Shown here piece by piece: positions 7,387-33,555 of a stretch of DNA of 33,555 bases. This stretch comes from Jimgerdemannia flammicorona (lineage: Eukaryota). The stretch lies in assembly GCA_003990765.1 (NCBI GenBank), contig RBNJ01000306.1:1-33555 (forward strand), read 5' to 3'. The first letter of the stretch is position 1. Every line of letters starts with the position of its first letter. Made by a program: the position numbers and the translations under genes. The notes below the pieces were generated by a model. It worked only from the letters and a program-made list of their open reading frames with translations. It had not been told where the DNA came from and made no database searches.

Positions 7387-8062
7387 ATATATATATATGT
7401 AAATAATAAATTGTAATTTAAAAATAATTACATATAAACTATATAAAGAACTATAGAATTAATTAAGTAGTAAAACTAAGAAATAAAAAAATAAACAAAT
7501 TTCTTTTTTATAATAAATTAAAACAATACAAAGTCAATTCTTTTATATACTTAATATATATATAATAACTATATCAATACTATAATAAAAATTAGGAATA
7601 ATAGTTTTTTTTTTTTTTTTAGAATATTATAATTATATAATAAAATATATATATATTTTATATTTTTTTAAACTATAATATATTTTACTAAACTAAATTA
7701 ATTTAATATAATAAAATATAACTCTTTACATATAAATATATATATCTCTACAGTTAAAGAAATTCAAAATAGTATCTAAGTTAATAATATTTTCCATTAA
7801 TAAATAATTTAATATTTATATTTCTTTTATAGTTATTAAAGTAGAAAATGCTTTTATATTTTAATAATAAAAATTAAATAAAATTTTAAATATATTAAAA
7901 ATGTATATATTTTAAATAAAAAAAGAAATTATAATAATAGAAATAATTTGGATAAATAAATATTATTTATTTATCTAACTTATCCAATTCCAGATAAATA
8001 GAAAATCTTATTACTTAATGATTTATAATAAACTATCTCTTTTATATTAATAATTAGTATAT
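7387..8062. other. Extremely AT-rich low-complexity spacer between two LTRs
   Basis: Almost only A/T, with (TA)n runs and a T tract at ~7605-7620; sharp boundaries at both LTR termini. Confidence 0.85.
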
Positions 8063-8939
8063 TGCAATATATCTGGCTCAATAGAGGTAAATTACAAGGT
8101 TGGAGATTGATGTAGTTTGGCTTGAGCCTCTAGTTACTTCATCAAAAGTAACAAAATATTCTAAGATTCCTGAGGTTCTTGTTGGTGTTTAGTAGTATAA
8201 TAGTCAAAGCTGGATGTCTGCAAGTAGTTTTCTTATTGAGACAGTTCTCTGAGTATAGTGGCAATTTGTATATAAATGGGTTTCCTTCTTGAGTCAATCT
8301 GAGAATTGGTAGAATTTCATATATAGTATTACAATCTCTGTGTGTAATGGTCTGGTGATTTAGCAGTTCTTCTTCTTAGGTGGCAATCTTCAAAAGTATG
8401 TGATTTCTGCATAATGATCTCTATATAGTATGATGATCTCTATGTAGTATAACAGTCTCTATATAGTATGATAATCTCCAAAAGTATGTGATTTCTGGCA
8501 GATAACTTGATTTGGCTCACTGGAAATAGAGAATGGCATAGGTTCTTCCTGAGATAGTCCACTGGAAATTATACTACCAATACTCAATCTTTAGAGACTT
8601 CTTTAGTATTTGTATTTCAGACTGAGGTTTATTTACTCTTATCTCTGAAGTATTTTATATATTGTAGTTGCTATCTAGTTGCTATGTGACTAACTGTAGA
8701 TTTGCTACTTATGGCAAGTTGTGCAGATTCAGTACAAGTGTACAGGTCTAGCACAGGTGTATAGGTCCTGCACAGATATACCTTATCTGGTAGTCTGGCT
8801 ATTTATATAGTTTTCCACAACAATAGTTGCTGTATCTGGTTACTATGCTATATGTTCATGTCATCTTGGCTAAGTTACTAATTGTTTACATCATCTGGCT
8901 AAGGTATAATTTGGGTAGTATTTTTTTTAATATGTTATA
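8063..8939 (-). repeat. 3' LTR of element A (~877 bp)
   Basis: Direct repeat of 33110-33555; termini TGCAATATA and TATGTTATA are both transition-decayed forms of TGTAACATG/CATGTTACA; 19-bp tandem repeats at ~8415-8480. Confidence 0.85.
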
Positions 8940-9479: not shown

Positions 9480-11029
9480 AACTCTCTGAATCATGATGTG
9501 GGGAAAGATATATCTTGAGGTGATTGATGTGTACTGGTGTCCTCAGGGTTCATCTATTCATACTTCTTAAATAGGTGCTAGTTCCTCTGATGTTGTGTAC
9601 AAGATAAGGTCCTTCCTATTTAGGCCCCAGTTTGGTGGCAAAATTGGTTTCAATCATACTTCTCCAAACTAGTACTTGATCTCCAAACTTGATTTCCTGA
9701 TCCTTCTGTTTCTGATTAAAGTACTTCTTTTGTCTTTCTTGAGCTTTGATAATCTGACTTTGGGCTTAATTATGTAACTGTTCTGTCTTCTTGAGAAGGT
9801 CTCCAAAATTCTCATGCTCAGCAGTTCTGGTTTTCTTAGCAAACATCATTTTGAATGGCTTTTATTTGATGGAGGCAGCAGGAGTGTTCCAGATTTCCCA
9901 TAGGGTCTCAGATAAGCAGAGGTCCCAGTTAGTAAGATTGACTTGGGCAAGTTCTTTCTTAATGGTCTGGTTCATTCTTTCTGTTATACCATTGATCTGA
10001 GGGTAGTATGATGTGTTCTATTTGAGGTGGATCTTGTGAATTTAGGTATAACTTATAATTATGTTATTGATGAATTCTGTGCCTTGGTCAGAGATAAGTT
10101 CTTCTAGGGGTCCATATCTGAGTGTGAGTCTATGGAGAAGGCCTACAATAATTAAGACATCTGCAATTTCCATTGGGAAAGTCTTGGGCCACTTTGTCAG
10201 ATATTCTACAAATACAAGAATGTATTTATTTCTTCTTGGTATAACTGATAGGGGTCTAATTATGTCTACTCCCCATCTCTGAAAGATGTTGTCTAGTGGT
10301 GCAATTGATTACAATGGTGCTTGGTAGTTCTTCCTTCCTTAGTACTTCTGGCAGGTATTACATTTTTTGAGTATGTTCTGAACTTATGTTCTGAGGTTGG
10401 ACCAATGTTAGTATATTGTTTGCAACCTCTCTTCTATATTCACCTATCCCTGGTGAGCTTTCTGATGTTCTTTTAGATGAGATCTTCTTGTGCCTTGATG
10501 GTCTGAGGAGCTTCCTTTAGGGTGTAGTTTCTCAGAACACCCTTCTTCTGGTTCATTGGAGTTAATGGAAAAGTACATCAACATTGTTGAGAGCTTTCTC
10601 TGCTTTGGGAATGATGGTGATTTGTAATCCTGAAGAATAAGGATCCAGCAGGCTAGGATTCCAGTGAGTTCCTTACAGTTGAAAAGTTATTTGAGGGCTG
10701 TATGGTCTGTTATCAGGGCAAACTTTTTTCCAATGAGATAATGCTTGAACAGAGTGACCAACTATATTACTGCAAGGTATTCCAGTTTAGTGCTACTATA
10801 GTTTATCTATTGCTGATTGATAGCTCTGCTTGTATAAGCTATCACATGGTGTTGTTGATTGGATCCTTCTTGGGCTACTGCTCTAAGGCCATCTTTAGAA
10901 GCATCTATATTCAAGATGAATAGCTTCTGTAGATTGGGGTACACAAGGATTGGTACTGTAGTTATATGGTTCTTGAGTTCTTTGAAGGCCTTTTCTTGTA
11001 ATTTTGTCTATTTGAATGGTACTCCTTTC

Positions 11030-11031
<2 letters not shown>
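9480..11031 (-). pseudogene. Element A pol 3' part: connection/RNase H and integrase with GPY/F motif
   Basis: ILNIDASKDGLRAVAQ (RNase H); QRWGVDII, EELISDQGTEF, YPQINGITERMNQTIK (integrase DDE core); KLGPK*EGPY; no chromodomain seen. Confidence 0.9.
11016..11031. repeat. LINE target-site duplication, left copy
   Basis: ATGGTACTCCTTTCTT, identical to 16906-16921. Confidence 0.95.
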
Positions 11032-11060
<29 letters not shown>

Positions 11061-11139
11061 GTCAGTTGGACTCCATCCTTTATTAATACTCCTGTCTATC
11101 CTCTATATAAAACACAGTGCCCTACTCCTATCTGATCCC

Positions 11140-14100
11140 CCTAGGGGGTCCCCCTCCCCTCACCCCTTTCTGATGAAAGACCACTTTGTCACCCACTATT
11201 GCCACCCACCCGCCACTCTATTTACAGATCCCCTCCACCTGCCAGCAATGTTGCCCACCCTGGAGACCCCAACCAATCCACCACCTAGTCATTAGATCTT
11301 CCACCAAAGCCTCCCACCTCAACAACTTCTCCTGTATCCCTAATTGTTGCTCTTCCTCAAAAACAAAGAGCCAATGCCCAGCCAAACCAACCTACACCAC
11401 TATAACCCACCCTAATATGAGCCACTCATTGTCTACACCTCCCACCAGTCTAGATCTCAAATCCACCCAGCGACCCCTCTCATCATCCAGCTTCCTTCCT
11501 ACACCCAGCTGGTCTCCTATAGCTATCCAAAAGTCCCCCAACACCTCACATTCTCCCAGCCAATGTTCTGGCATCTGCATAACTCCTCCAGTATGCCCTA
11601 CATCATAATACTCCTCACAATCCAATTGACCACCAACCACCAGATGCCCAGCACGGAAATTCAACATAATATTCCTCCACAGCATTCTCCACCAAACTAC
11701 CTAGAACTTAGGAGGAAGCCATATCTGCACCTCAGCACTCTAGGACCAGATTCCCACCCAGTCCCACTCCTCACCAATCTCCACTGTCTGCCAGCTCTTC
11801 AGCCAAAGGTCCTGGCCAAGTCTCCACTGACACTCCACTCCATCACCAATTTCAAAATCAGCAAGCAGAGACCCCCCTAGAAGCAGTTGGTCTCATCGCC
11901 ATATAGCAGGGCCCCACACCACCTCCCCCTCATTGCTACACCAGTGCAGACCTATCTGGTGCACTCCATCCACCACTCCCCACCAGAAGCCCCTATATCT
12001 TATCTGGCAGCTTCCATTCAGACCCACCAGAGAGAGAAAATCGCCTGAGGACCCTTGAGGGGAGAATCTCTTCTCCCACACCTTCTGCATCAATGGTACC
12101 CAATCTCCTCCCTGCAGCTCCACCACCCTTCTCAACCACCAGGCATATAGACAGTGTGGCCACTTAGGGAAATCTACCAGACCTAGGCCTCCCCTAATTC
12201 CTGGCTCCACCAGAGTATCCCAACTGACCTGGGACCTTCTACCTGTCCAAATCCAATCCCTAGCCAGTTTCATCAGCCTCTTCACCACCCAGGCAGGAAA
12301 GTCTAATTGATATGCCACATACCTCAGCTTGGGGAACCAGTAAACATTCAATATTGAAACCCTCCCTATCAGAGAGATGTGACAACCACTCCAACCTTGA
12401 AGAGTCTCCCCCCATACAGCCACCCTCCTCTCTCACCATACTTGGGATAAGACAGATCTATATATAGAGAGAAAGATACCAAGATACCACACCACCTCTC
12501 CTGTGGGGACAATTGTTCCAATGACATCCCCTCCCACTAGCCCATTTCCCAACACTATTGTCTCACACTTATGTCAGTTGAGTTTTGCTCCAGAGTGTGC
12601 CTCATACCATTCCACTGTTTCTTTAAGCGCCTCTACATCCACCACTGATCCAAGTCCAACTACCATATCATCTGCAAAAGCCCCCACCTTCCACACTATA
12701 CCATATACAGAGAGCCCTGCCACCTTCCTCTGGATTCTATTGATCAAAGGTTCTAGTGAAAGTGCATAAAGAATAGGAGACAGTGGGTCACCCTGGGAGA
12801 CTCCTCTTCCCAAGTGAAATGCCAAACCCCTATGACCATTGCACATTTGCACTACCCTACTGCCTTCTAACAACTTCAACTTAGAAGCCCTAAACTGTTG
12901 TGGAACACCAATTCTATCCAGTACCTTACCTAGCCATACCTGCTGAACATGGTCATAGGTCTTCTCCTGGTCCAGAAATACCAGCCTACCATCCAGACCA
13001 CATGTCTGGACCCCTTCTATGATGCCATGCACCCAGGCAGTCTCATCTCTGATGAGTCTCCCTCCTACAACTCCTCACCCAGCACCTGTTGAGCAACCTT
13101 CTGTAGCCTTGCAACAATCACCTTAGTAACCAACTTCCTGTCCATGTCCAGAAGCATGATCAGCCTCCAGTTCTTCCATTCCTCCCTTCTACCCTTGTCT
13201 TTAAACAATAAGGCCACCAGCCCTAGGTCTTGCTCACCAACCAACTCGCTATTCAGAAGAACATGGTCACAGAGGGCAGCCATCTCTCCTAACACTTCAG
13301 GGACCTTTGCTATCTTCTTCCAGAAGTCCCAAGGCAACCCATCCTCCCCAGGTGCCATCCCAATCTTAGTTGCTGCAAGGACCCCCTGGATCTCCTCCTC
13401 TTGGACTGGTGAGATCAGATCACCCAGTCTCTCTACCTGTGGCAGCTCCTACTCTTCCAGAGCATCACCAATTGCCTCTTCCTCTACACCCCCTTCTTCC
13501 TCACTCCACAGCCCCTGCCAACTCTCCTTCAATACCCCCAAGATCTGTTGTATACCATATATCATATCCCCTCCAGTATCCAAGATGCCATCCCACTGAT
13601 GTCGCACTCTTCTAGCTTTGAGGAGCATAGACAAGTATCTAGTAGGCCACTCCCCCTCCTCTATTGCCTGCCACTGTAGCCTGACAGCCATCTCTCACAT
13701 ATGAATCTCTTCCTCCTCCCTCAACACCTGTTGCAGTTTGACAACCTTCAATTTTGCCCACTCTAACCTCCAATCATCTATCTCCACAGAGGAAAGCAAG
13801 TCTGCCCATTCCATCTACAATCTCATCAGCCTATTTGAAGCACACCATATGTGCCTTCTCCTCTGTCTCCCAGCCTCCCTACCAGCTCTACTCCAATAAA
13901 TCCTTGCAGCCTCCTTCAACTATATCCACCAGACAACCATAGACAAACCCTCATGCCTCTATATCAGAATCTTCTCCTGAACATCCTCCACCCATGAGTC
14001 CCACAACCCCTTCTGAGCCAGCAGGGAGGAGTTAAGGTGGTAATGTCCAGGTCCATCTCCACTCCCCCCAAACTGCCCCTGCCCCAACTGGCCCCAGTGA

Positions 14101-14770
14101 TTGGACCACAGGCACTACTCCACCTCCAAAGTCTTCCAAACATCAGCACCCCAGCATTTAGCCATCAGTATCCAGTCAATCCTTGTACCTAAGCCATTCA
14201 CCCAATGTATATAGACCCTGGTATTGCCCCACGATGTTCTGCCCATATCCCCTAAGGCACTAAGATTCTCCATCTCCTCCCATGCCTCCAGGCCACCACT
14301 CCTCCCACCTACATTTCTCCCTCCATCAGTTCTATCAAGATGCAGATCCTGAACCATATTAAAATCTCTACCCAGAATATCCACTCCTTTCTCCAAGAGA
14401 ATACCCTCCTCCAGCAACTCCTCAATCTATATAATCCTCTCACCCCTTACTGCTGGACAGTAACAGGAGCCAACCCTCACCGATTCTCACCCAGGCCGAA
14501 TCCAATCTTCCCAGACCAATCTGTCACCCCAGTTCCTGATTCCCCCCAGGTCTCCTCTACCCTTCTTCACCAGAATCACCACTTTGCCAAATCAAGCAGT
14601 AGCCCCACCCCATTCTCTAGTCCACTCTACTCAATTATCCTCATTCTCACACCAGACATCCTGCAGTAAGAAGAGTTCAGTCTCCAATCTCTTGAGCCAA
14701 GTAAAAATTGTTCTTACACTACCCAGAACCCCTTAACCCATTCACATTCAAAGAAAAAATATCAGTTGTA
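11140..14770 (-). pseudogene. LINE ORF2: AP endonuclease, reverse transcriptase, C-terminal Cys/His motif (disrupted)
   Basis: SLNVNGLRG, LLQD, ILGRDFN, RIDWIL (APE); APGEDGLP, NWRLIMLLDMDRKL, FLDQEKTYDHV, GVSQGDPLSPILY, AFADD (RT); CEEY..EHWLGEC. Confidence 0.92.
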
Positions 14771-14800
14771 CTGTTTATATGAAATAATGATAGATATCAC

Positions 14801-16836
14801 TCACATCCTCTACAGGTCCACATTCAACTCCTCCTGTGCCAAGTCCAGGTCTCATTCAGCTGCAAGTTCTTTCTTCTCAGCCTCCTGTGCCTCCAACCCT
14901 CCCAGTAGTTCAGCCATCACCCCATCCTCTCTCTCCTCAAAGTCCTTATGATACACCAGACAGGCCTCTCATCAGAGCTGCAAACCATGATGCTCTGCCC
15001 AACAGTAGGCAGCCCTCTCACAAGCAACAACTGCCAACTCCTCCTCTCACACCCTATCAACCTCATATCCCTCCTCCTCCATGAAAATCACCAGAATCTC
15101 CACCTTCAGTGCCTCTACCACCCCATTGCCATGCAAAATCCTTGCCCACTGCTCCTCAGGCATCACATACAGGTCCACCTCTCCCAACTTCTCAGCCACG
15201 AGGTTATCCATCACCTTACTCATCCACAGCAGGTTCCCCACTTCCTTCCCTCCTGGAGTCCCTGGCTGCCCTGCATCCAACATTGTGGTATCAGCTCCCA
15301 CACTGGCAGCCTCATCCCACTCCTCCTCAGGGACATCCACCAGCTTGTCCTTGCCAACCACCACTACCTGGCCCCCTCTCTTCACATCTGGGACCCCAAA
15401 GTGCACCTGCTTGGCCCCCTGCATCAGCACATCCTCTGTTGGCCCTCTCTTCACAACCAGGCCCCTCCTGATAAAGGGGGGGGGGGTGGAATCCATATCC
15501 TACTCCCAGACTTCAAATGTGCAATCTGCAAAGAGGTCCTTGCTCAGATCCTTCCCACCTCCTTCCTTGTTAGCCTCCACCTCCCCTTCTCTTTTACTAG
15601 TCCAGACACTGGCTTCGATACCCCCAGACACCTCAGCCCCATCGACCTTCTTCTTCGCCCCTTCTTTTATACTTGCCCATAGCTCCCTCTGCCTCCTGCA
15701 CCCCTGGGCCCACTTTCACTGCCTCTTATCAGTGTGAATATGCTTCCCATCCACAATCTCCAGATATGTTGACTCCTCAAACACTCGCCAGGCCTTCTTC
15801 CTCCTCTCAACTGCACCACTCAGCTCCTCTAGAGCGTCCAATAAGTCCTCCTCCTCCTCATCACTCCCTTTCACCCTCGACACCTTACAGATAAAGGCCC
15901 CCCACATTAGCACCAATAGCCAGTCACCCACCTTCCTGGTGGCCTCTTTTCCTGCCAGCCAAATCCTGACATCAATATCACCTATCCTGAATGTGGTCCC
16001 CTCCCACATCTGGAAGCCAATGTCCACCACCTCACCATACTCCACCATCACCTCCTCCACCCTCCTCCTAGTCTCCTTCTTCATTACTGTTGGCACCCCC
16101 TTCACCAGAAGCTACACCACTCTGGGGTCCCACCTCAAGCACTGCACCATGGGGACCACCACTTTCCCCACCACTATGCCAGCTTTCAGAGCCTCGTCTA
16201 GTAGTCCTGCCTCCTCAAAGCCCACCTCAACACCCTCCAGCCCCTTTAGGAACTTCACTGATGCTGCCCCAGCCATCTGCTTCAAAATCAGCCCCAGAAC
16301 CATCCTTGCCATCACCACCAAGCCTCAAAAGCACAGAGTGGCTGCAAACTCTGAGATCAATTTCTTGAGTAACAGGGCCACCGCAGGTCAGTTACACCAT
16401 CTGCCAGGTCCCCCTTCTCCATTGGGACCCCCTGCCACACCTGGCCATCAGCAGTCACATCTCTTTTTTTTTTCTGATCCCCCATCACAATCCCATCAAC
16501 AGTCATACCCTTAGCCACAGCCCCTCCTGCCCCTATGCTTCCATCTCCACCCTGAGGGCCACTCCCCCTCCTGATGCTAGCCTTGCCCTTCCCCTCAGCA
16601 GTGCCAGCCCTGGTTCCAGTAGACCAACCACCTGCCCTCACCTTGTCAGCAAAGCTGGTAGAGCCAGGCCTTCCTCCAGCTCCACCTAATATCAGTCCTC
16701 CTCCAGAGCCTCTGCCACCCTTTGATCCTCCAAAATCCCCCATCCCCAAACCATACCCTCTCCCCACATGCTGCCAGCTGAAAGCCCCAGGTCCACCCAA
16801 CCCAGTATACCCATTAGAACTCTTGCTTGATGACAT
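14801..16836 (-). pseudogene. LINE ORF1 (Gly-rich N-terminus, RRM-like core, acidic C-terminus), disrupted
   Basis: ATG at 16836; ORF fragments 16112-16321, 15716-16105 and 15047-15496 share one frame; KGVP..VMVEYGEVVDI resembles L1/Tx1 ORF1 RRM regions. Confidence 0.75.
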
Positions 16837-16905
16837 GTTTATAATACCTTTCCTCTGAGTTGTATTGAAAAACTGCTGCTTGAAGTTTGTGTAACATGAT
16901 TTGTG

Positions 16906-16921
16906 ATGGTACTCCTTTCTT
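16906..16921. repeat. LINE target-site duplication, right copy
   Basis: ATGGTACTCCTTTCTT, identical to 11016-11031. Confidence 0.95.
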
Positions 16922-17341
16922 GAGAAGGATTCAGATTGGGGTGGCAATTTGAGCAAAATCCTTAATAAACCTTCTGTAGTAGGATACCAGCATCAGTAAT
17001 GATAATATTTCCTTTGTGGTATTGAGTAGTGGCCAATTGTTGATCTTTTCAGTTCTCTTTGGGTCTGCATGGATTTCTACTTTTGAAACTATGAATCCAA
17101 GGAATTCAAGTTTCTGTTTTCCAAAGTAGCATTTCTTTATATTCAGTCTCAAGTGGTTTTTGTAGGTGAGCTTGAAGAATTCCTCTAGGTAGTATAGGTA
17201 TTCTTTAAAATTTACTGAATAGATGTTGGAATTATCCATATATACAATCAGGCAGTGGTGGATCAAGGGGGCATAGACTGAATTCATCATTCTCTGAAAG
17301 GTGGGGGTGTATTGCAAAGTCCAAAGGACATTCAGAGGTAT
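16922..17341 (-). pseudogene. Element A RT core fragment stranded between the LINE and element C
   Basis: SFGLCN, PTFQRMMN, VYMDN (YxDD decayed), KKCYF, LEFLGFIVS, SYYRRFIKDFAQIA. Confidence 0.92.
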
Positions 17342-17821
17342 TGTAAGAGGGTTGCTTTTTTGAGTAACCATTACATAGTTCTGGGAGAGTTTTCTGAAAG
17401 TTCTGGATATTCTGGAAGACTGTTTTCTTATGGTCAAGATCAATTTCATATGGAGTACATCCTCTATACTTATTGATTTCAAGTTTGGGTTGACATCTCA
17501 ACCAAAGACCTTTTTCGAACTAGTTCTGGATGTTCAGGATTTTCCATATTTCAGGAAGTTCAAGAAACTAAGATCAGCTTAGTTGCATTGGCATATCACT
17601 GCAGACAATACCCAATTAGGAAATTTCGTGATAGGGTTAGGAGTGAGACCTAACAGAGAGCAGATTTACTTAAGAGTAGTTTGTGGGTTATCAAATAGGT
17701 TTATTCGCTATTCATGATATTGCTATACTAGGAGTAGTTGTGTGAAGGGATATTGTGGGGAAGTGCTCAGGAGTTGTGTTCAGATTGTTCAAGTCTGAGA
17801 TTCTGAGGTCTGGAGGAGAGG

Positions 17822-17957
17822 GTATTTATACTAGTGAAAGGCTATCTGGACTATACTAGATATAGATATAGCACTTAAGTACTTTGCTGAGTCAGAATGC
17901 AGTCACATAGTACAAGTGTGATCTGATATATCAAGAGATCAACTGACTGCTGAGTCA
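17822..17957 (-). promoter_or_regulatory. Putative LTR promoter of element C: two AP-1/Gcn4-type sites and a TATA box
   Basis: TGAGTCA at 17888-17894 and 17951-17957; minus-strand TATAAATA at ~17823-17830; AATAAA at ~17700-17705; all present in the other LTR. Confidence 0.55.
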
Positions 17958-18019
17958 GTTCACAGTCACATCATACAAGACTAATCTAACTATACTATGA
18001 CTGCTAAGCTATTTATGAT

Positions 18020-19106
18020 TTAGGCACTGTCTGGGTAGTCTTCAATGATATCACCATCGATGACATTATCTCTGATGAAGTGGTTATCCAGGAAAAGTGG
18101 TTCATGGATTACTTCTCCTTATTGACTGAGGTAGTAATATATTGGGACTTCATCACCATCCCACAGGATGGCATCATCTGTCTCATATGCTGGATAAGGT
18201 GTTGGTGGGTGAAGGAGCAGTGCATCATCTTCGCTTTCATCAGTTTTGCTATCTGCATACCTTCTATAGGTTACAGCACTATGAGTCACAGGATTGTAGT
18301 AAGCTGGTGCCTGTGGTTCATGTCACTCATACTCAGTTGGTGGAGTGGTTGGTTCAATCTCAAGAGTTGTCTGGAGGTATAGGTTGTGTTCTCCAGTCTC
18401 TTCATTATAGTTGAAGTAATCAGAGGTGAATGTGGATTGGTATTTATGCCAGTGGTCATTGTCCCAATAAGTCTCATATACTGTTATGAATTGTTGTAAG
18501 TTCATCAGCAAGGTTGGTGGTGTGATCAGGGTTGGCAGAGATCCTTGGCTTGAGGTCATGTTGGTGTCAGAGGGATTGTTGTCTTCTGCTTCATCTTCAT
18601 CAAAGTGGATTATATCATAGATATCCTTTATGATGTATCTGACTTGGGACATTTGCAGGATATGATCATTGGGGTGGGGGAAGGTTCTGTCTGTGGTTTT
18701 GACATACTCGAGGTACTTGTGGTTGAGTTCTTGTATCATATTGTCGATTTGGCCATAGGACAGGGTAGCAACCATTTCGGCTATAGTAACTCGGAGGCAG
18801 GGAATAACAGTGCTATATTCATAGAAGAGTTCTCAATGTTTGCGGGCAATGAGTTTCTGGTGTTGAGACATCTGGGTAATGTTTGTATCATGGTGGTGTT
18901 CGACCATGTCTTCCAGGAGATGTCCAATCTGGTAGTAGCTTGAGATTTGTCCAATCTGGTGGGCCTTGTTCAGCATGTTGAGAGCATTCCATTGGGCTTC
19001 CATAAAGTAGAGGGGTGCTAGGCTATGGATATTCATGAGGGGCAGAGGGGGTGTGGCTCAGTTGACAATGGCATTCCAAATGTCAGTGCAGATATGGTGT
19101 GATCAT
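18020..19106 (-). pseudogene. LTR-embedded ORF of unknown function, 3' LTR copy
   Basis: ORFs 18833-19036 and 18323-18775 are in the same frame and continue to TAA at 18020-18022; the 5' end is frameshifted by the 11-bp deletion. Confidence 0.7.
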
Positions 19107-19326
19107 GTTTGTATGTTTGGAAGTTGTGGTTGTTGTTTGTTTTGGTTCTCTGTTTCGATGTGTCTCAGTACTCGGTATATATGTATTTGTTCCTGATTGG
19201 TAAGATTCTGTTCATGTGAATCTTGTGTTCTGTGACTTCATGTTAACTCAGCATTGTGTACTGTGACTTTGGTTTGACTCAGCTTCATGATCAAGCAGGT
19301 GATTTCCAGATTTGTTTGGAGGTCAC

Positions 19327-19409
19327 GTGTGATTTTAGTGGCTTGTTCAGAGGGTGATGTGTGATTTCAGTGGCTTGTTCATAAGGTGATGTGTGATTTC
19401 GGTGGCTTG
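19327..19409. repeat. 32-bp tandem repeat (~2.6 copies) at the U3 end of LTR C; also at ~27920-28002
   Basis: Unit GTGTGATTT(T/C)AGTGGCTTGTTCAGAGGGTGAT, head to tail with no spacers. Confidence 0.85.
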
Positions 19410-19426
19410 GAGGTTGTGCACTTACA

Positions 19427-19443
19427 ACTCTCCCCTTCTTAGC
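19427..19443 (-). promoter_or_regulatory. Polypurine tract of element C
   Basis: Minus strand GCTAAGAAGGGGAGAGT directly before TGTAAG of the 3' LTR. Confidence 0.9.
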
Positions 19444-19848: not shown

Positions 19849-20015
19849 TTAGTTGTTCAAGGAATCATATTTCTGAACTAAGTCAGTAGCATTCTGGAGG
19901 TTGGTCTTAGGTTTCCAGTTTGCATCATGGATTGGATAATCTTTCCATTTAACAAGGTACTCAGGGTGGTTCTTGTGGCCATGTTTGTTGAGGATTTGTT
20001 CAACTTCATACTCTT
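19849..20015 (-). pseudogene. Chromodomain at the integrase C-terminus of element C
   Basis: EYEVEQILNKH..EYLVKWKDYPIHDANWKPKTNL retains the aromatic Y/W/Y residues. Confidence 0.92.
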
Positions 20016-23000
20016 CTTGGTCATTAATAATGACAGGTGCAGGTGGTTTCATGTTTCAGTTAGGGAATAGTTCATCATCATTCTCATCATATCACTTGAG
20101 ACATTGGATATTGAAGACTGGATAAACTTAATAGTGTCTGGTAGTGACAATTTGTAGGAGGTTAGAGAGACTTATGCATGACTTCAAATGGTCCAATGAA
20201 CTTGCTGTTCAGCTTTGTAGATGGACTGTGCTTGAGGTTATCAACTCGGTATTCTCTGATATCCAGTAGACCTTTTTCTCCAATATCAAAGGTTTCTTCT
20301 CAGCAGTGTTGGTTAACATACTGTGACTGTTGTTCTTGAGCTCATGATAAATTCTCGATGGCAATCTGGCTTAGATTGCGCATTCAGAGTAAGAATTCTT
20401 CAATAGCTTTGACTGTGGAGGGTTCTTCAGTGGTTCAGATAAGTGTCAAAGGAGTGTTTGGGTTTTGTTCAGTGTTGGCGAAGAATGGGGTCATTCCCAG
20501 GGAGGCTTGCTTGCTGTTGTTATAAGCAAACTCAACTGTGGTCAGGTGTTCATGCCAATCATCTTGTCTGTAGAAAACATAGTTTCTTAGCATTTATTCT
20601 AGAGTTTGGTTCATTCTTTCAGTTTGGCCATCAGTTTCTGGATGAAAGGCTATGGATAGTGCAAGTTTTGTTCCAAGGTGTGCATGGAGGGCTTTCCAAA
20701 AATGGCTGGTAAATTTTGGGTCTCAGTCACTAACAATGATCTTAGGAAGACTATGATAGTGGAAGATATTGTCAAATAAGAGTGTGGCTATGTCTGGTGC
20801 TGTTGCAGTAGTGGTAGTAGGCACAAAGTAGACTTGTTTGCTGAGGTAATCTACAAAGACAACAATTGCATCTTTTCTATTCTTGGTTCAGAGTAGTTAT
20901 ACAATGAAGTCCATAGAGATTTGTTCCCAATTTGCAGATGATACTGGGATAGAGTGAAGTAAGCTGGGTTTTGCTAGTGTTGAGGACTTGTTTTGTTGGC
21001 AGGTATCACAGGAAGTGATATAGGTTTTGAGCTGATCTGCCATGCAGGACCAATAGAAGTTTTGGGAGATAACTTCATAGCATTTGTTGAATCCTAAATA
21101 TCCAGCTATAGGTGCATTATGACATTCAAATAGGATAGTCCTTTGGAGTTCTCAGTTGTTTAGGACATACAGTCTGTCCTTATAGTAGATAGTATTGTCC
21201 TTCAGTTGGTATTAGTGATACTGTGTATGCTTGTTGGCATCATCACTGTTCAGGATTTCTCAAAGTACTTGAGCTTCCTTTTCATCAGCACATACTGTGA
21301 TAATTTATTCTATGATGGAGTTTGTAACCAAGGTGAGAGTTTGGATAACTTCTTCGATTGGTGGTCTGGAGATTACATCAGCAACAATATTTTCCTTGCC
21401 AGGGCAGTACTGGATTTTGTAGTCAAAGTTGGTGAGGACTTTCATCCATCTGGCTTGCTTTCGAGAAAGGGTAGCCTGTGTCTTGATATTAACTAATGAT
21501 TTGTGGTCAGTCAATATAGTGAAGTGTACTCCTTCTAAGTATGGTCACCATTTGATCAGGGTGTCTACAATAGCTAACATTTCCTTTTCATAGGTTACAT
21601 AGTTGATTTCGGCATCATTGAACTTGCGGGAGTGATAGGCCACAGGGTGTCCTTCTTGCATGAGTACTGCTCGAAGGGCTAGGTCAGAGGCATTAGTAGT
21701 GACTTCATATGGTAGGGCAGGGTTTGCTGCTCAAAGTACTGGAGTGGTTATCAAGGCATCCTTCAGTGCTTAAAAGGCAGTATCTTGCTCGGGTCCCCAA
21801 TTTACAAGATTGTTGAAGTCTTTCTCTTGTTTCATGGTCCAGAGTTATTCTTGTTTCTTGCTGTGCTTGGTCATTTGGGTGAGGGTGGTAGCAATTTTAG
21901 CAAAGTTGGCAACAAATTGCTTGTAATAGTTTGCTAATCCCAGGAATGACTGGAGATCTTTCAGCTTCTTGAGTCTGGGCCAATCTTTGATTGCAGAGAT
22001 TTTGCTGAGGTCCACTTTAATTCTATTTGGAGTGACAATGTGTCCAAGAAATTGAATTTCTTTCAGGAGAAATTCACACTTGCTGAGTTTTGCAAAGAGT
22101 CAGTTTTCTCAGAGTTTCAGTAGTACTAGTTCAAGGTGTTCAAGATGTTCTGCCAGCATTTTGCTGAAGACTAGGATGTCGTCAATGTAGACAACAACGA
22201 ATTTGTCCAGATATGGGTGCAGGATAATATTCATCAGGGTCTGGAAGGTTGCATGAGCATTAGTTAAGCCAAAGGGCATAAACAGGAACTCAAAGTGTTC
22301 ATAGTGAGTTTGGAAGGCTGTCTTGTAGATGTCTTCTTCTTTCATGGCAATTTGCCAGTAATCATTTCGCAGGTCAAAGGAGCTCATGAATTGCAGGTTG
22401 GTAAGTCTATCGAATATTTCATCATTCCTCAGTAGTAGGCAACAGTTCTTGATAGTCTGTTCATTGAGATCACAGTAGTCAATGCACATTTGCAGGTTTC
22501 CTCCTTTCTTGACAACAAATAGGACTGGTATACCATAAGATGATATGCTGGGTCTGATGAATCCTTGTTCTAGGAGTTCATCAATTTCTTTCTTGAGTAC
22601 ATTGATTTCTCTTGGAGACATGTGGTAGATTGACTTGAAGGCTGGTTTTGCATCTGGGATAGTCTTGATGGTATGGTCTACTACTCATTTAAGAGGTAGG
22701 CCTTTTGGGAGCTTCTTTGGGATATGTCTCGAAATTTCTGGAGTAGTGGTCTGACACAACTGTCAACTTTGAAAAAATCTTCTCCAGAGTTCTTGGGTTC
22801 TCCTTTGGATGGGTGGATGGAGATGGCAAAGAGAGGGCATTTCTTGGTCAATTTCTTGAGTTGTAGCTTGTTAATGTGGGTGATCTTTGGTCCAGGGTCA
22901 CTAGAATTAAGTAGGTCCTTTTCACCTTGCAGTTTGAAGTTGTGGCATCCTTTCTTAATGGTCAGAGAATGGTTTACCCAATCAATCATGGGGTTCTCTT

Positions 23001-23504
23001 GTTTCAACCATAGGGTTCTAAGGATGATTTTGTTATCAGGGAGTGGTATGATCTGGAGGGTAATATGTACTCAGTAGTTACCAATTCAGAAGGGTAGATT
23101 GTGGACTTCTTTGCTAATGATATGTGAGGTTCCATCAGCTGTGGCAACTGCTTGAGTTTGTTGTACTGGAGAGGTAAAAACCTTGAGTCTGTTGGCTATT
23201 TCCTCATTGATAAAGTTGCCTAAGGCACCACTGTCTATCATAATCTTGACAGATGCTCGGTTAATGAAAGCTTTAAGTGTAAGCAGTTTGTCTGATCCAA
23301 TGGTGGTGATTTCAGTTGTAGGGGCTTTCCTTCTGTTGGTTCTTCTTTGTCCCAGTTCATTGACACAAGAGAAGCAATCATCAATCATTCGGGAAGAGTA
23401 CATTCCAATGCCATGAGGGCATCAGCCACTTGGTATATATCTGTCTTTGATCTTCTTGTAGAATTGTTCTTTTTTGCTCATAGTAGGTTGGGCTGGGGCC
23501 TTGT

Positions 23505-23910
23505 TCGATGAGCCAAATCCTTTGGATCCTTGGATGGTAGGTAGTAGTTCAGGGACCTCTTTGACTGTCAGGGTTGATTCCATTTTTTCAAATAGAATCT
23601 GGGCAATGCAGAAACCAATAGGGATCTTGAAGGGTGTCCAACTGTGGTTTCAGATGAGGACAATAATTTCGCCTATATAATCTTCATCAATGACTCCTCC
23701 TCCTACTGAGAGTCCTTTCAATGCTAGGCTGCTGCATATTCTTCCAACATGTCCTTCAGGAATTTGGATACTGATTCCTGTGTAGACTTCCTTGACTTCT
23801 TGGTTGGAAACTGTAGCTTCTTCAGCTGCATACAGGTCATATCCAGCTGCTTTTTGACTTCTTTTGGTTGGGACCTTGGCAGTTTGCCTTAACTTGACAA
23901 AGTCTAGTGT
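23505..23910 (-). pseudogene. dut: dUTPase domain of element C (between nucleocapsid and protease)
   Basis: AAGYDLYA, TGISIQIPEGHVGRI, SSLALKG, GGVIDEDYIGEI, IAQILF, GSKGFGSS. Confidence 0.92.
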
Positions 23911-25905
23911 TCTGGTGATTAGGTTGTTGAGGTGGTGCAGAGTAGTAACAGTTGCTCATGTTGTTGTTCGGGGTTTTCAGTTAGGGCAGGTGCTGGCCAT
24001 GTGTCCTGTCTTTCAGCAATAGAAGCATGCTCCACTTCTTCAAAGTTCATTCCTTTCGCCTTCAGTGAGTTTCTTGAAGGTACTTGGTTGGGTGGGTTCA
24101 TGATTTCTGGGTGTCCAAGAGGTGGATGTGGAGGGAGTATGGGATGCTTCATGCTTGGGTTTGTCTTTCTTGGTCCAAGTCTTTTCCTTGTTGTTGAATT
24201 GCCTTTGGGGCAGAATCGGTCCAGCTGATAGGATTTGCTTGACCATAGTCTTGATTCTTACCAGGCACTATTGTTAGTGATCACAACCAACCAGGCAGCC
24301 TTGTACTCAAATTTTTCTAGTAAGCCATTCAGGCAGTGCATCAGATAAATGGTCTGCTCTTGTACCATTTTGTGCTTCATCATTGACATTGTATCCTAGG
24401 CCAACAGTGTTCAGGAGTGACTCAAGTTTTGTACAGAAGGTTTTGAATTCTTCTTTGCCATATACATCAAATTTAAGGTTGTGGAGTTTTACTCGAGATT
24501 CAGCAATCATGGTTTTACTGCAGTATTGAGCAATCATGAGTTGTTTGAGTCCAGGGGCTGCAGGATGAGCTCCATATCCTGGGGCATTGTTTGCTGTATT
24601 CTGAGCAACTACTGTAGGTCGGGTATCCCATGTGAGGGGTTTTTCAGAAAGGGTTTACCTCCATTCTTCAGCAGGTCCTTGGAAGAATGTAACAACTTGG
24701 TGGACATAGGCTGTAGTGGTAGCAAAGAGTTGTTCCAGAGTGTAGTCTTGATTGTATGTCAGAACACAGTCAGCAACTTGCTCATTGGTCCATTGATTGG
24801 CTTTGAAGTTAGTATCAACTACACTAATAAAGCTTTGGACTTCTTGTATAGTACCATTCAAGGTAGGTAGGCTCAGATTTTTGGTAGATCAGGTCTGTTC
24901 AGCTAAGGCAGTAATGGTTGCTGCCATTATTGCTACCTGGGCTGTGAGGTTTAGAATCTGTTGGTTCACTATGTTGTTTGCTAGAAGTGGTTGGACTGCT
25001 GGTAGTGGTGTTACTGGTACTACTTGAGGTACTGGTGCAGAGTGTGATGGGGTTCTTTGGATCTGTATAAGTTGCTGGAGTAGTAGTTGTGGGTCTGGAG
25101 TGAGGGCTTGATAGATAACTGTTTGTTGCTGTATAGGTATATTCTGTCCTGATGGAGGTACTTCTCCTTCAGTGGTATATCCAGGATCAAATTCACTGAG
25201 ATACTCCTCCTCCTCTTCGGTTTGGTCCCTGTGTAATCAGTGTCAAAGTAGATGGAATAGTTGTATATCTGATTTCAGATGGACTTAATTCAAAGTCAAG
25301 TTCAGGTTTATTGTTGGTTTCAGGTTCAGGTAGAGCTGTAGCAGGGCCTGCTTCAGGTTCGAGGTCAGGTAGTTGATGAAGGGTTTCTCTTGCTTCTTCT
25401 TTAAGAATATGGTGGGCCTTGCTGTTCTGGAATTGGTAGTATAATGTAGTCTTGGTCCTGGTATAGTGAAAGTCAGTAGAGTTGAGCCACTTGGCTACAG
25501 AGGCTTGGGCTTCATGAGGGACTAAGGCTAGAAAGATTACTGCTGGCTGTCTTAGGTCACTTGTATTTGTGGAGCTGACAAAACTCTTGTTGAGGAGAGT
25601 AAAGAAGGCTTCAATAAGACCTTCTTCATCTTGACTTACTGGGTGTAGTGCAAGGAGTTCAGTGAATAGGGTTTTGTCTATTTGCTGATTTAACTGGAGT
25701 ATTTCTTTCTTCAAATGAAGTTTGTTCCACTTGATGTAGGTGTGGAGGTCAATTTGTCCTTATATGTCAGGTTCAATTCTCTCCAGATTGTCAGATAGTT
25801 CAGGATAAATTCCAGTTCAGAGGTTGGGCTTTATACCAACTTGTAGGAATTCTCAGAAGAGTTTGTAGTGGGGTGAGGAAGCATCTTGAAGCAGATTTGT
25901 ATTGT

Positions 25906-25920
25906 AAACTGCTGCTACCA
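25906..25920 (-). promoter_or_regulatory. Primer-binding site of element C, initiator tRNA-Met type
   Basis: Minus strand TGGTAGCAGCAGTTT begins 3 nt after the 5' LTR; TGGTAGC matches the 3' end of eukaryotic tRNAi-Met. Confidence 0.8.
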
Positions 25921-26601
25921 AGTTGTAAGAGGGTTGCTTTTTTGGGTATCCATTATATAGTTCTAGGAGCATTTTCTGAAAGTTCTGGATATCCTGAAAG
26001 ACCGTTTTCTTATGGTCAAGATCAATTTCATATGGAGTATGTCCTCTATGCTTATTGATTTCAAGTTTGGGTTGATGTCTCAACCAAAGTCCTTTTTCAG
26101 ACCAGTTCTGAATGTTCAGGATTTTCCATATTTCAGGAAGTTCAAGAAACAAAGACCAGCTTAGTTGAATTGGCGTATCATGGCAGACAATACCCAATTA
26201 GGAAATTTCGTGATGGGATTAGGAGTGGGACCTAACAGGGAGCAGATTTACTTAAGAGTGGTTTGTAGGTTATTAAATAGATTTATTCGCTATTCATGAT
26301 ATTGCTATACTAGGAGTAGTTGTAAAAAGGGATATTGTGGGGAAGTGCTCAGGAGTTGTGTTCAGATTGTTCAAGTCTGATATTCTGAGGTCTGGGGGAG
26401 GGTGTATTTATACTAGTGAGGGGCTATCTGGACTATACTAGATATGGGTGTAGTACTTAAGAACTTTGCTGAGTCAGAATGCAGTTACATAGTACAAGTG
26501 TGATCTGATATATCAAGAGATCGACTGACTGCTGAGTCAGTTCACAGTCATATCGTACAAGACTAATCTAACTATACTATGACTGCTAAGCTATTTATGA
26601 T

Positions 26602-27699
26602 TTAGGCACTATCTGGGTAGTCTTCGATGACATCACCATCGATAACATCATCTCTGATGAAGTGATCATCCAGGAAGAGTGGTTTGTAGATTACTTCTCC
26701 TTGTTGGCTGAGGTAGTAATATATTGGGACTTCATCACCATCCTACAGGATGGCATCATCTGTCTCATATGCTGGATAAGGTGTTGGTGGGCAAAGGAGC
26801 AGTGCATCATCTTCACTTTCATTGGTTTCGCTATCTGCATACCTTTTATAGGTTACAGCACTATGAGTCATGGGGTTGTAGTAAGCTGGAGGCTGTGGTT
26901 CATGTCACTTGTACTCAGGTGGTGGAGTGGTTTGTTCAATCTCAAGGGTTGTCTGGAGGTATAGGTTATGTTCCCCAGTCTCTTCATTGTAGTTGAAGTA
27001 ATCAGAAGTGAATGTGAGTTGGTATTCATACCAGTGGTCATTGTCCCAATAAGTCTCGTATGCTGTTATGAATTGTTGTAAGTTCATCGGCAAGGTTGGT
27101 AGTGTGATCAGGGTTGGCAGAGATCCTTGGCTTGAGGTCATGTTGGCATCAGAGGGATCATTGTCTTCTGCTTCGTCTTCATTGAAGTGGATTATATCTT
27201 AGACATCCTTCATGGCATATCCGACTTGGGGCATTTGCAGGATATAATCATTGGGGTGGGAGAAGGTTCTGTCTGTGGTTTCAATGTACTCAAGGTACTT
27301 GTGGTTGAGTTCTTGTATCATGTCATTGATTTGGCCATAGGACAGGATATCAACCATTTCGGCTATAGTAACTCAGAGGTGGGGAATAACAGTGCTATAT
27401 TCATAGAAGAGTTCTCAGTATTTGCTGGCAATGAGTTTCTGGTGTTGAGACATCTGGGTAATGTCTGTATTGTGGTAGTGTTCAACCATGTCTTCCAGGA
27501 GGCGGCCAATCTGGTAGTAGCTTGAGATTTGTCCAATCCAGTGGGCCTCGTTCAGCATGTTCAGAGCATTCCATCAGGCTTCCATAAAGTAGAGGGGTGC
27601 TAGGCTATGGATATTCATGAGGGGCAGAGGGGGTGTAACTTGGTTGACAATGGCATTCCAAATGTCAGTGCGGATACAGTTATAGATCTTGGTAGTCAT
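26602..27699 (-). pseudogene. LTR-embedded ORF of unknown function, 5' LTR copy (365 codons plus stop)
   Basis: ATG 27699 to TAA 26602 is 1098 nt in one frame: MTTKIYNCIRTDIWNAIVNQVTPPLPLMNIHSLAPLYF...GDVIEDYPDSA*; internal stops are mostly TGA or TAG. Confidence 0.72.
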
Positions 27700-27874
27700 G
27701 TTTGTATGTTTGGAAGTTGGGGTTGTTGTTTGTTGTGGTTCTCTGTTTCAATGCATCTCAGTGCTTGGTATATATGCATTTGGTCCTGATTGGTAAGATT
27801 CTGTTTATGGGAATCTTGTGTTCTATGACTTCATATTGACTCAGCTTTGTGTGCTGTGACTTTGGTTTGACTCA
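27700..27874 (-). promoter_or_regulatory. Putative promoter of the LTR-embedded ORF
   Basis: TGACTCA at 27837-27843 and 27868-27874, minus-strand CCAAT ~27789-27793, TATATA 27769-27774, A/C-rich leader ending ACAAAC-ATG. Confidence 0.55.
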
Positions 27875-28944
27875 GCTTTATGATCAAGCAGGTGATTTCC
27901 AGATTTGTTTGGAGGTTGTGTGTGATTTCAGTGGCTTGTTCAGAGGGTGATGTGTGATTTTGGTTGCTTGTTCAGAGGGTGATATGTGATTTTGGTGGCT
28001 TGGAGGTTGTGAGCTTACAGGTATTCAAACAGTTTTTCTAGAGCAAAGAAGGCTGGCTTTTGATGTCCTTGGAGTCTATGGGGATCTCATGGAATCCTGC
28101 AAAAAGGTTTATATTGCTAAAGTACATATCTGGCATCTTGTAACTAATCCAAAAGGTCATTGATTCTGGGCAAAGAATAGGCATCCTTTTTAGTGACTGA
28201 ATTGAGTTTCCTGTAATCTATATAGAGTCTCCATCCTCCTTTCTTTGGCACAATAAGTATAGGGCTGGCCCAAGGGCTGGTAGATGGTCGAATAACTCCA
28301 TTGTCTAAGAGTTCTTGAATGTGCTCCTTTTTGAATATTCTTAAGTAATGGGATATTCTATAGGATTTCTGTCAGATGGGTGTTACTTTTCCTGAATTTA
28401 TACTGTGGTGATATGATGGGTTATATGGCAGGTTGCTATAATCAGTAGTGAAGATATCTTGAATTTGTTGAGGTTTCCCTGGTTGTTGCCATTGTTGAGG
28501 TGTCAATTCATCTCCAATGTTGGTGGAAGGCTTCACTGTCTCTTCAATCACAGAGGGGCCTTTCCTTTCTTCTGGGACCTTTTGCTGTTTCCCAATAAGT
28601 TTAGTTCATAAACTTCCCAATGAGTTCAGTTGAGAAAAGGCATCTGGTGCCCTATGATGGTTCCTTTTGGTAAGATGATGGTTACCCAACTTTAGTTGGT
28701 TGCTTAGGAGTGCACTGGATTCATCTTGTTAGGGAATGTGTGTCTTTCTATATCCGAGTGTGAGATATCTTCATTGGGTTCAAAGAAAAGATTCCTGGGG
28801 TCGGGAGGTGCAATGATTTCGAAGATAGTTTGTTCTCCAGGCTCCAGAATGAGATTCTTGTGCAGTTTGACTGGTTGGCAGTACACTTGCTGGGAAACAT
28901 TTCTCTTGAGGTGGTTGACTTGAAGGAGATGTACTTCCTTCTTG

Positions 28945-29075
28945 TCTGATCTACCAAATCCTTTGGCTTGTCTTGTTCCTTCAGTTAGTTTAGAGACTTC
29001 TTGTAATTGTGGCATCTTGACCTTCATGAAGACTGCTTGGATGATCTTCTGTCCTCTAATGATTTGGTACCTATA

Positions 29076-29118
<43 letters not shown>

Positions 29119-29415
29119 ATTTGGTACCATTCTGTACTACTATTGTATAGAATGATCTTGATTTCACCTGTATATCCTGGATCAATGGTTCCTCCTTCTA
29201 CAGTTATTCCTTATCTGGCAAGTCCACACCTTGAGGTCAATTGGATGTAAGCTCCTTGGGGTAGTTGCATGGCTAGTCCAGTTCTAATCATGAATGTTTT
29301 TCCAGGCTTAATAGATTCATCCTCCAGACTGTGAAGATCATATCCTATATCTTCTGAGTGTGCTTTGGTCAGGGGATTGGCCTTGGGATGTAATAGGGCA
29401 TACTAGGCAACATCC
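28945..29415 (-). pseudogene. dut: dUTPase domain of element A (between protease and RT), interrupted by a poly(A) insertion
   Basis: DIGYDLHS, RTGLAMQLPQG, TSRCGLA, GGTIDPGYTGEI, IIQAVF, TRQAKGFGRS. Confidence 0.92.
29072..29114 (+). mobile_element. Tail-only retro-insertion: TATATAT plus poly(A), flanked by a 14-bp TSD
   Basis: AATGATTTGGTACC at 29058-29071 and 29115-29128; removing the insert restores the dUTPase frame. Confidence 0.9.
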
Positions 29416-33109: not shown

Positions 33110-33555
33110 TATAATATACCTGGCTCAATGGAGGCAAATTACAAGGTTGGGAGTTGATGTAGTTTGGCTTGAGCCCCCAGTTAATTTATTAAAAGTAATA
33201 AAATATTCTAAGATTCCTGAGGTCCTTGTTGGTGTTTAGTGATATAATAGTCAAAGCTGGATGTCTGTAAGCAGTTTCCTTATTGGGACAGTTCTCTGGG
33301 TGTAGTGGCAATTTATGTGTAAATGGGTTTCCTTCTTGGATCAATCTGGGAATTGGTAGAATTTCGTATATAATATGACAATCTCTATATATGACAGTCT
33401 GGTATTTTGGCAGTTCTTCTTCTTGGGTGGTAATCTTCAAAAGTATGTGATTTCTGCATGATGATCTCTGTATAGCACAATGATCTCTATATAGCATGAC
33501 AGTCTCTGTATAGTATGACAATCTCTAAAAGTATGTAATTTCTGGTGGATAACTC
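33110..33555 (-). repeat. 5' LTR of element A (runs off the window)
   Basis: Collinear with 8063-~8505, including the 19-bp tandem repeats; adjacent to the PBS. Confidence 0.92.

Follow-up and report, generated by a model that had tools for sequence, protein, structure and literature searches.

A reading frame inside the long terminal repeats of a chromovirus

A reading frame of 365 codons is located within both long terminal repeats (LTRs) of element C, a Ty3/Gypsy chromovirus inserted in a 33,555-nucleotide stretch of contig RBNJ01000306.1 from the Jimgerdemannia flammicorona assembly GCA_003990765.1 (the whole stretch is referred to as the window). We consider it probable, at about three in four, that the progenitor of the element had a genuine extra protein-coding gene, specific to its family, of which this frame is the decayed remnant. 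Sequence comparison gives good support for an ancestral frame that was open and coding, and both copies in the window are dead.

Copy 1 of the open reading frame (ORF) occupies 26602..27699 of the minus strand in the 5' LTR, with its ATG at 27699, its TAA at 26602-26604 and 365 codons before the stop. Copy 2, in the 3' LTR, occupies 18020..19106 of the same strand, with its ATG at 19106 and its TAA at 18020-18022. An earlier note on this DNA had reported a sense frame in both LTRs, and its coordinates from ATG 27699 to TAA 26602 and its count of 365 codons were reproduced. The ends that it gave for the second copy were also right, but it had overlooked a deletion: copy 2 lacks the 11 bases equivalent to 27681-27691 (codons 3-7), and 18020-19106 is therefore not one continuous frame. 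In both LTRs the ORF spans LTR positions 321-1418 of 2096. It starts 320 nt into the LTR, downstream of in-frame stops, and is absent from the internal region between the LTRs. Because the ORF lies wholly within the LTR, there are two copies per element and one in any solo LTR.

Copy 1 contains six internal stops (codons 42, 95, 109, 167, 265 and 319) and copy 2 contains four (codons 20, 95, 265 and 333). At six of the eight stop sites only one of the LTRs carries the stop; the other two sites, codons 95 and 265, are TGA in both, as had been noted earlier. The window copies would have been broken after insertion, mainly by transitions of the cytosine-to-thymine type, which account for 154 of the 181 differences between the LTRs. 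CpG sites were kept in both LTRs in 4 cases and lost in one in 23, and a further 23 sites are TG/CA pairs, giving a loss of about 0.74 per LTR. With decay this close to saturation, two parallel stops at former CpG codons are expected rather than surprising, and the earlier proposal that parallel CpG decay produced the shared TGA stops is plausible. A CpA bias resembling repeat-induced point mutation, seen among the LTR differences, was discounted as being largely due to the 23 TG/CA pairs from double CpG decay.

Evidence that the frame was coding

The other two sense frames over the same span contain 16 stops in each LTR (15 common to both) and 37 in each (27 common). Stops are thus mostly private in the ORF frame but mostly shared in the other sense frames, as they are in the antisense in-register frame, which argues that the ORF frame alone was open when the element inserted. 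Among 2000 shuffles that preserved dinucleotides, the stop count of the minimum frame averaged 19.7 and was never below 10. Base composition differs between codon positions across the ORF (chi-square 77, p 1e-14), both in codons 1-114 (p 3e-4) and in codons 115-365 (p 2e-12). This periodicity is comparable to that of the reverse transcriptase (RT) and dUTPase fragments, and the LTR flanks gave p values of 0.6 and 0.9.

Open relatives

Relatives of the ORF protein were sought in a word-indexed search of 5.8 billion proteins and in an exhaustive profile search of 1.84 billion representatives. The word-indexed search returned one match in the near length class and one in a shorter class (P0002 and P0003, respectively). 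The profile search returned the same two proteins together with P0005 (E 2e-4), a repeat protein matching 39 profile positions that was rejected as spurious. Both relatives form singleton protein clusters, and scans of metagenome contigs and viral contigs found no relative.

P0003, named 'hypothetical protein', is a 128-residue open product of a 1180-nt contig; it is 81% identical to residues 1-128, shares their start methionine, and has sense residues at window stops 42, 95 and 109. P0002 is a 247-residue open product of a 998-nt contig that ends at the same stop. Aligned with residues 115-364, with two gaps of 2 residues each, it shows 58% identity and 78% positives to the 5' copy and 62% identity to the 3' copy, and it has sense residues at window stops 167, 265 and 319. 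Shared stop codon 95 is therefore sense in P0003 and shared stop codon 265 is sense in P0002, the ancestral state at these two sites resting on the two relatives. For each stop site in the window, some other copy or natural relative has a sense codon, as the earlier note's suggestion of an ancestrally open frame would predict.

When the C-terminal segments of the window copies were evolved by neutral substitution to 60% identity, 4.1-5.4 new stops accumulated and the probability of acquiring none was 0.5-1.5%. Positives in the same simulation had a mean of 0.71 and a maximum of 0.776 over 6000 runs, compared with the 0.78 observed for P0002. The methionine at residue 115 (27357) is invariant in all four sequences, and P0002 begins there. 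This start could be an internal start, the start of a shorter gene in the more distant lineage, or simply the edge of a truncated contig.

The predicted protein

The ORF would encode a protein of about 41 kDa, as estimated from its length, with an isoelectric point of 4.05-4.5 and 55-60 Asp+Glu against 13-15 Lys+Arg. Residues 171-365 hold 41 Asp+Glu and only 5 Lys+Arg, together with 27 aromatic residues and 18 Pro. The earlier description of an acidic, Pro-rich C-terminus was therefore upheld, but the His/Tyr richness described for the N-terminus is partly copy-specific and differs from P0003. There is almost no Cys, and the best 19-residue Kyte-Doolittle mean is 1.19, so that no hydrophobic segment is present and the earlier reading of the protein as lacking a transmembrane segment holds. 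By these features the predicted product is not env-like, is not a zinc-finger protein and is not a known transposable element (TE) domain. Predictor-free inspection by eye found no basic cluster. A PPxY-like motif, PPAY, in the 5' copy was rejected because it is absent from the 3' copy and from P0002.

In structural models, helices assigned by DSSP fall in the N-terminal part of about 165 residues, and the C-terminal part of about 200 residues, rich in Asp/Glu, aromatic residues and Pro, was modelled at low confidence. A tblastn comparison of the ORF with the gag-pol of its own element and with the other elements of the window detected no similarity (best non-self E 0.41). A search of the Atlas gave no usable match for the ORF protein, and Rfam contained no family at gathering score.

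The family in public sequencing runs

Words of the LTR were found in 11 public runs at small shares (0.05-0.16); seven of these were soil metagenomes and four came from two coded organisms, and no RNA run was listed among them. In four runs, 3719, 403, 307 and 697 short contigs fell on the LTR at 80% likeness, and contigs of four runs cover the ORF over its full length. Contig depth is not copy number and cannot rank the parts of a gene. In run X8, conjecturally one of RNA, the depth peaks over 26128-26309 and is low over the ORF, from which no reading on expression was drawn.

The LTR border is confirmed by contigs that end at 28019 and continue into the polypurine tract of the family. Contigs matching the LTR immediately past the ORF were read by hand and continue into more diverged last codons that stop in the same place. 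In joined contigs of X1 and X2 the last ORF residues are those of P0002, although one X2 contig has a premature stop. The variant of the P0002 type would thus also be LTR-borne, at least at the 3' junction.

None of the 10 joints listed removes ORF sequence; they fall in 26173-26532 and in 27831-27984, the region of the tandem arrays. Together with the contig numbers, this points to an abundant family whose LTR includes the ORF elsewhere too. Codon 167 was the only window stop site among the 40 of 566 substitution sites listed. There, the sense letter of the 3' LTR holds 488.5 of 997 depth in X1, 74.9 of 120.6 in X6, 13 of 13 in X8 and 27.2 of 35.6 in X2. Among the 12 of 26 indel rows listed, eight lie in 26354-26598 and three in the ORF, the latter being single-base insertions and deletions no more than four bases apart.

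LTR layout and expression

In sense order the LTR contains two tandem arrays, CCAAT and TATATA boxes, the ORF, TATAAATA (26412) and AATAAA (26287), all on the minus strand. The first array (27905..28002, 32 nt x 3.1) lies at the 5' end of the LTR and varies in copy number among related contigs; the second (27816..27879) consists of 31 nt x 2.1. In four runs, related contigs are missing 31-146 bases of the interval 27831-27984, so that the repeat number varies among copies. CCAAT (27793) and TATATA (27774), at 27769..27793, lie 75-94 nt upstream of the ATG in both LTRs and form a candidate promoter for the ORF; the 75 nt from TATATA to the ATG at 27699 are free of ATG. The TATAAA at 26407..26412, within TATAAATA, is kept in both LTRs and is a candidate promoter for the genomic RNA. 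The AATAAA at 26282..26287, the sole one in the LTR, lies 125 nt downstream of TATAAA and is a candidate poly(A) signal.

If the genomic RNA starts after 26412, as a conventional reading has it, the ORF lies in U3 and enters the genomic RNA only via the 3' LTR. From these motifs we infer that the ORF is inside U3. Expression could then proceed from the CCAAT/TATA-like promoter upstream of the ATG to the single AATAAA of the LTR, each LTR forming a complete transcription unit, or could depend on a subgenomic RNA that reaches the ORF copy in the 3' LTR. A promoter belonging to the ORF itself is suggested by the motifs, but only tentatively, and we would lean against it.

A different layout, with the upstream CCAAT/TATA-like site as the start of the genomic RNA, would place the ORF in an R region of about 1.5 kb as a first cistron resembling the 5' aORFs of the Tekay clade. 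This possibility concerns anatomy alone and is compatible with a real gene. The arrays lie 42-228 nt upstream of TATATA (27774) as opposed to about 1.4-1.6 kb upstream of TATAAA (26412), and repeated enhancers in LTRs are usually close to their promoter. Chromovirus 5' aORFs located upstream of gag and largely disordered are also described in the part of PMC11728184 covered. On the other side, a canonical TATAAATA followed 125 nt on by the sole AATAAA conforms to the usual U3-R-U5 arrangement. The long R would further require that transcripts in the 5' LTR read through an AATAAA at a distance of 1.5 kb from their cap, and known R regions are far shorter than 1.5 kb. All of these considerations are drawn from motifs, and we regard this layout as unlikely.

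Weighing a family gene against other origins

Several results weigh against a relic of a family-specific gene. The two open relatives are the only real ones among the 1.84 billion representatives, both come from short contigs, and each accounts for a different part of the protein, one with 128 open codons over residues 1-128 and the other with 247 over residues 115-365; an intact copy of full length did not turn up. P0002 starts at Met115, so that in the more distant lineage conservation is seen only beyond the N-terminal third. Protein databases, moreover, contain only frames that a gene caller found open, so that the relatives were ascertained for openness. AlphaFold gave the whole protein a predicted local distance difference test score (pLDDT) of 31.7; the N-terminal 128 residues were modelled as helices, again at low confidence (pLDDT 52.4, predicted template modelling score 0.48), and the Atlas model of P0002 has a pLDDT of 0.39. 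No Pfam family matched at E up to 1 except RFC1, a meaningless match at E 0.14, no relative was found among PDB sequences (best E 0.68), and Foldseek against the PDB with the N-terminal model returned nothing (best E 2.4). The earlier note had likewise recognised no motif, and a known TE domain, which it had named as a result that would speak against its reading, did not turn up in Pfam. The U3, R and U5 borders and both promoters, finally, depend on motifs that a base-composition estimate expects about once per LTR by chance.

The frame might instead have been captured, from the host or from another mobile element, as a sequence that was coding in its source and then became a passive passenger of the LTR, without use to the retrotransposon; an orphan protein that lacks a TE domain would fit this. 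The covered part of PMC7264820 documents that LTR retrotransposons can capture genes. The same source, however, describes transduced genes as sitting in one or a few copies, and here thousands of contigs carry the region. The frame has also stayed open, with conservative changes, between lineages that are 58% identical, which implies selection while it was LTR-borne, provided that P0002 is LTR-borne as the joined contigs suggest. No relative outside TEs was found among the 1.84 billion representatives, and the base composition is in keeping with the rest of the element. A captured passenger is accordingly rather improbable.

That the frame is open by chance, in a sense strand with much A and C and little T and G (A 0.33, C 0.27, G 0.17, T 0.23), is very improbable, because this composition still predicts 18.3 stops per 365 codons, no shuffle fell below 10, and the codon periodicity, private stops and open relatives all oppose it. 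Least credible is a real gene on the opposite strand. The antisense in-register frame does have few stops, 6 in the 5' LTR and 5 in the 3' LTR, where the other antisense frames have 23-24. Five of the six sites, however, carry a stop in both LTRs and so predate the insertion, and the scarcity of stops follows from three sense codons being rare in the sense frame. Both database relatives, moreover, are in the sense frame.

Comparison with known systems

For a relic of a family-specific gene in an LTR, a positional parallel is sag of mouse mammary tumour virus (MMTV), a sense ORF of about 320-365 codons within U3. MMTV is a vertebrate retrovirus, and Sag is a type II membrane glycoprotein expressed from spliced RNAs. 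The LTR ORF, too, is in the sense direction, and its place upstream of TATAAATA and AATAAA makes U3 its presumed position. Unlike Sag, its predicted protein has neither a hydrophobic segment nor similarity to Sag, and its carrier is a chromovirus. The foamy virus tas and bet, human immunodeficiency virus nef and human T-lymphotropic virus pX genes are accessory or regulatory genes at the 3' end of the genome, partly in U3, and some of their products have acidic activator tails. These genes start in the internal region and merely overlap U3, whereas the LTR ORF has its start codon within the LTR, 320 nt from the edge and preceded by in-frame stops, and no similarity to them was found.

VANC binds short repeated motifs. 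As a functional analogy only, the LTR ORF recalls VANC in the tandem arrays at the start of its LTR and in copies that show heavy methylation-type decay; it differs in belonging to another transposon class and in having no sequence similarity. VANC is an accessory protein of VANDAL DNA transposons that gives sequence-specific protection of its own family from silencing, according to the part of PMC11728184 covered. Searches of Pfam, PDB sequences and, with low-confidence models, the PDB by Foldseek gave no match that would make the ORF protein Tas-, Tax- or VANC-like by sequence or fold.

Among plant LTR retrotransposons, the covered text of PMC6317226 and PMC7264820 describes extra ORFs as common, heterogeneous and mostly lacking known domains, and that of PMC11728184 describes conserved, largely disordered 5' aORFs upstream of gag in Tekay-clade chromoviruses. 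Extra ORFs are counted from at least 250 codons outside the polyprotein in the portion of PMC6317226 covered; the window frame spans 365 codons and is broken in both copies. The LTR ORF resembles the plant aORFs and eORFs, as presented in these same parts of PMC11728184, PMC6317226 and PMC7264820, in being family-specific, additional to gag-pol, a few hundred codons long, domainless, biased in composition, largely disordered and conserved within a family. It is unlike them in lying wholly inside the LTR, so that each element has it twice and a solo LTR retains it. A nuclear localisation signal is present in the 5' aORF protein of sunflower Tekay elements, whereas the LTR ORF protein is acidic with few basic residues. 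The profile search of 1.84 billion representatives showed no sequence similarity between plant aORFs or eORFs and the LTR ORF.

In an exact-phrase literature search for ORFs located in LTRs, which may miss papers and did not extend to subscription journals, the cases that came up were retroviral, most of them MMTV, and none was from an LTR retrotransposon. An LTR-resident position is unusual for an orphan retrotransposon extra ORF. The earlier statement that U3-encoded accessory genes are not standard in chromoviruses calls for a qualification, as extra ORFs in another position, the 5' aORFs, exist in the Tekay clade.

Possible function and significance

The product would be a soluble, strongly acidic protein with no detectable relatives outside the family. 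It might act in trans on its own family, as an activator of LTR transcription or a blocker of silencing, possibly via the arrays of 31-32 nt. The acidic, aromatic-rich tail and the repeated arrays are what prompt this guess, and a regulatory function is accordingly put forward as doubtful. A still bolder version, and a decidedly improbable one, makes each LTR an autonomous gene with enhancer-like arrays, a CCAAT/TATA promoter, a 50-nt leader, the ORF and a poly(A) signal, whose acidic product would work in trans to switch on the LTRs of the family or to protect them against methylation.

Many LTR retrotransposons have extra ORFs, which the portions of the literature covered describe in the internal region, with no function shown. 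A conserved gene inside the LTR would be inherited via the copying step for U3 and R, doubled in each element and retained by solo LTRs. Solo LTRs, usually regarded as inert promoters, could supply a helper function in trans if the protein does regulate its own family. Were the autonomous LTR gene true, solo LTRs arising by recombination would be working helper genes for the whole family, and the ORF would be an LTR-resident counterpart, in a chromovirus, of VANC or the retroviral trans-activators. One LTR with one ORF would also offer a compact test system for orphan disordered TE proteins.

The carrier element

The window is a nest of Ty3/Gypsy elements, in which element C is a single chromovirus insertion on the minus strand. 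Self-comparison of the window gave one long direct repeat pair, 17341-19426 and 25923-28019, with 90.8% identity over 2097 columns; the two LTRs differ by 181 substitutions, 154 of them transitions, and by a single 11-bp indel. The 5' LTR (25924..28019, 2096 bp) and the 3' LTR (17342..19426, 2085 bp) both have the ends TGTAAG...CTTACA, and element C is flanked by a 5-bp target-site duplication, ATACC, at 28020..28024 with its partner at 17337-17341. The primer-binding site TGGTAGCAGCAG, of the TGG type, is located at 25909..25920, 3 nt past the 5' LTR. The polypurine tract at 19428..19440 adjoins the 3' LTR, and X6 and X2 have contigs in which the same tract meets the start of the LTR.

The decayed internal region (19849..25759, minus strand) contains gag-like ORFs followed by pol domains matched by Pfam: dUTPase at 23650-23955 (E 1e-18), protease at 23086-23421, RT (RVT_1) at 22109-22684, the integrase zinc domain (Integrase_H2C2) at 20897-21151 and a chromodomain (Chromo) at 19849-20055 (E 7e-14), all on the minus strand. 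The Pfam scan of the domain order left out the RNase H fragment. Paired TG...CA LTRs with a target-site duplication, the order protease-RT-integrase and a C-terminal chromodomain identify element C as a complete but dead chromovirus insertion. P0021, a JGI protein of 537 residues, carries dUTPase, protease and RT in a single open frame and is 87-90% identical to the decayed pol of element C; less decayed members of the family therefore exist.

Of side interest is the combination of a dUTPase-bearing chromovirus with nearest named RT relatives from streptophyte algae and plants, namely Closterium, Chara and Asteraceae (45-55% identity). The aromatic residues at the cage positions of the chromodomain are kept, as judged by eye, and the covered part of PMC6317226 limits aromatic-cage chromodomains, among green plants, to non-seed plants and algae. 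The same plant-wide survey has no occurrence of dUTPase, which PMC2864245 describes solely in fungal elements. Chromoviruses with a dUTPase may be undescribed in a green-lineage host.

Neighbouring elements in the window

Element C interrupts an older dUTPase-bearing element, the RT halves of which lie on either side at 17183-17343 and 28123-29210. The two elements share 34-47% protein identity, and the older one contains the second dUTPase domain of the window (28704-29210, minus strand, Pfam E 1e-7), upstream of its protease. Elsewhere, direct repeat copies at 8066-8507 and 33113-33554 are 87.6% identical, the right copy being cut by the end of the window, and an inverted copy at 34-367 shows 79-82% identity. 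These three copies are probably LTRs of a second family, and no relative of the LTR ORF turned up in them.

The block 11001-17000 has a GC content of 0.48-0.54 and a GC skew of -0.35 to -0.54, compared with a GC content of 0.33-0.43 and a positive skew elsewhere in the window. It includes an RT fragment at 12574-13074 on the minus strand and many long frames with no Pfam match. At 7001-8000 the GC content is just 18% over 1 kb.

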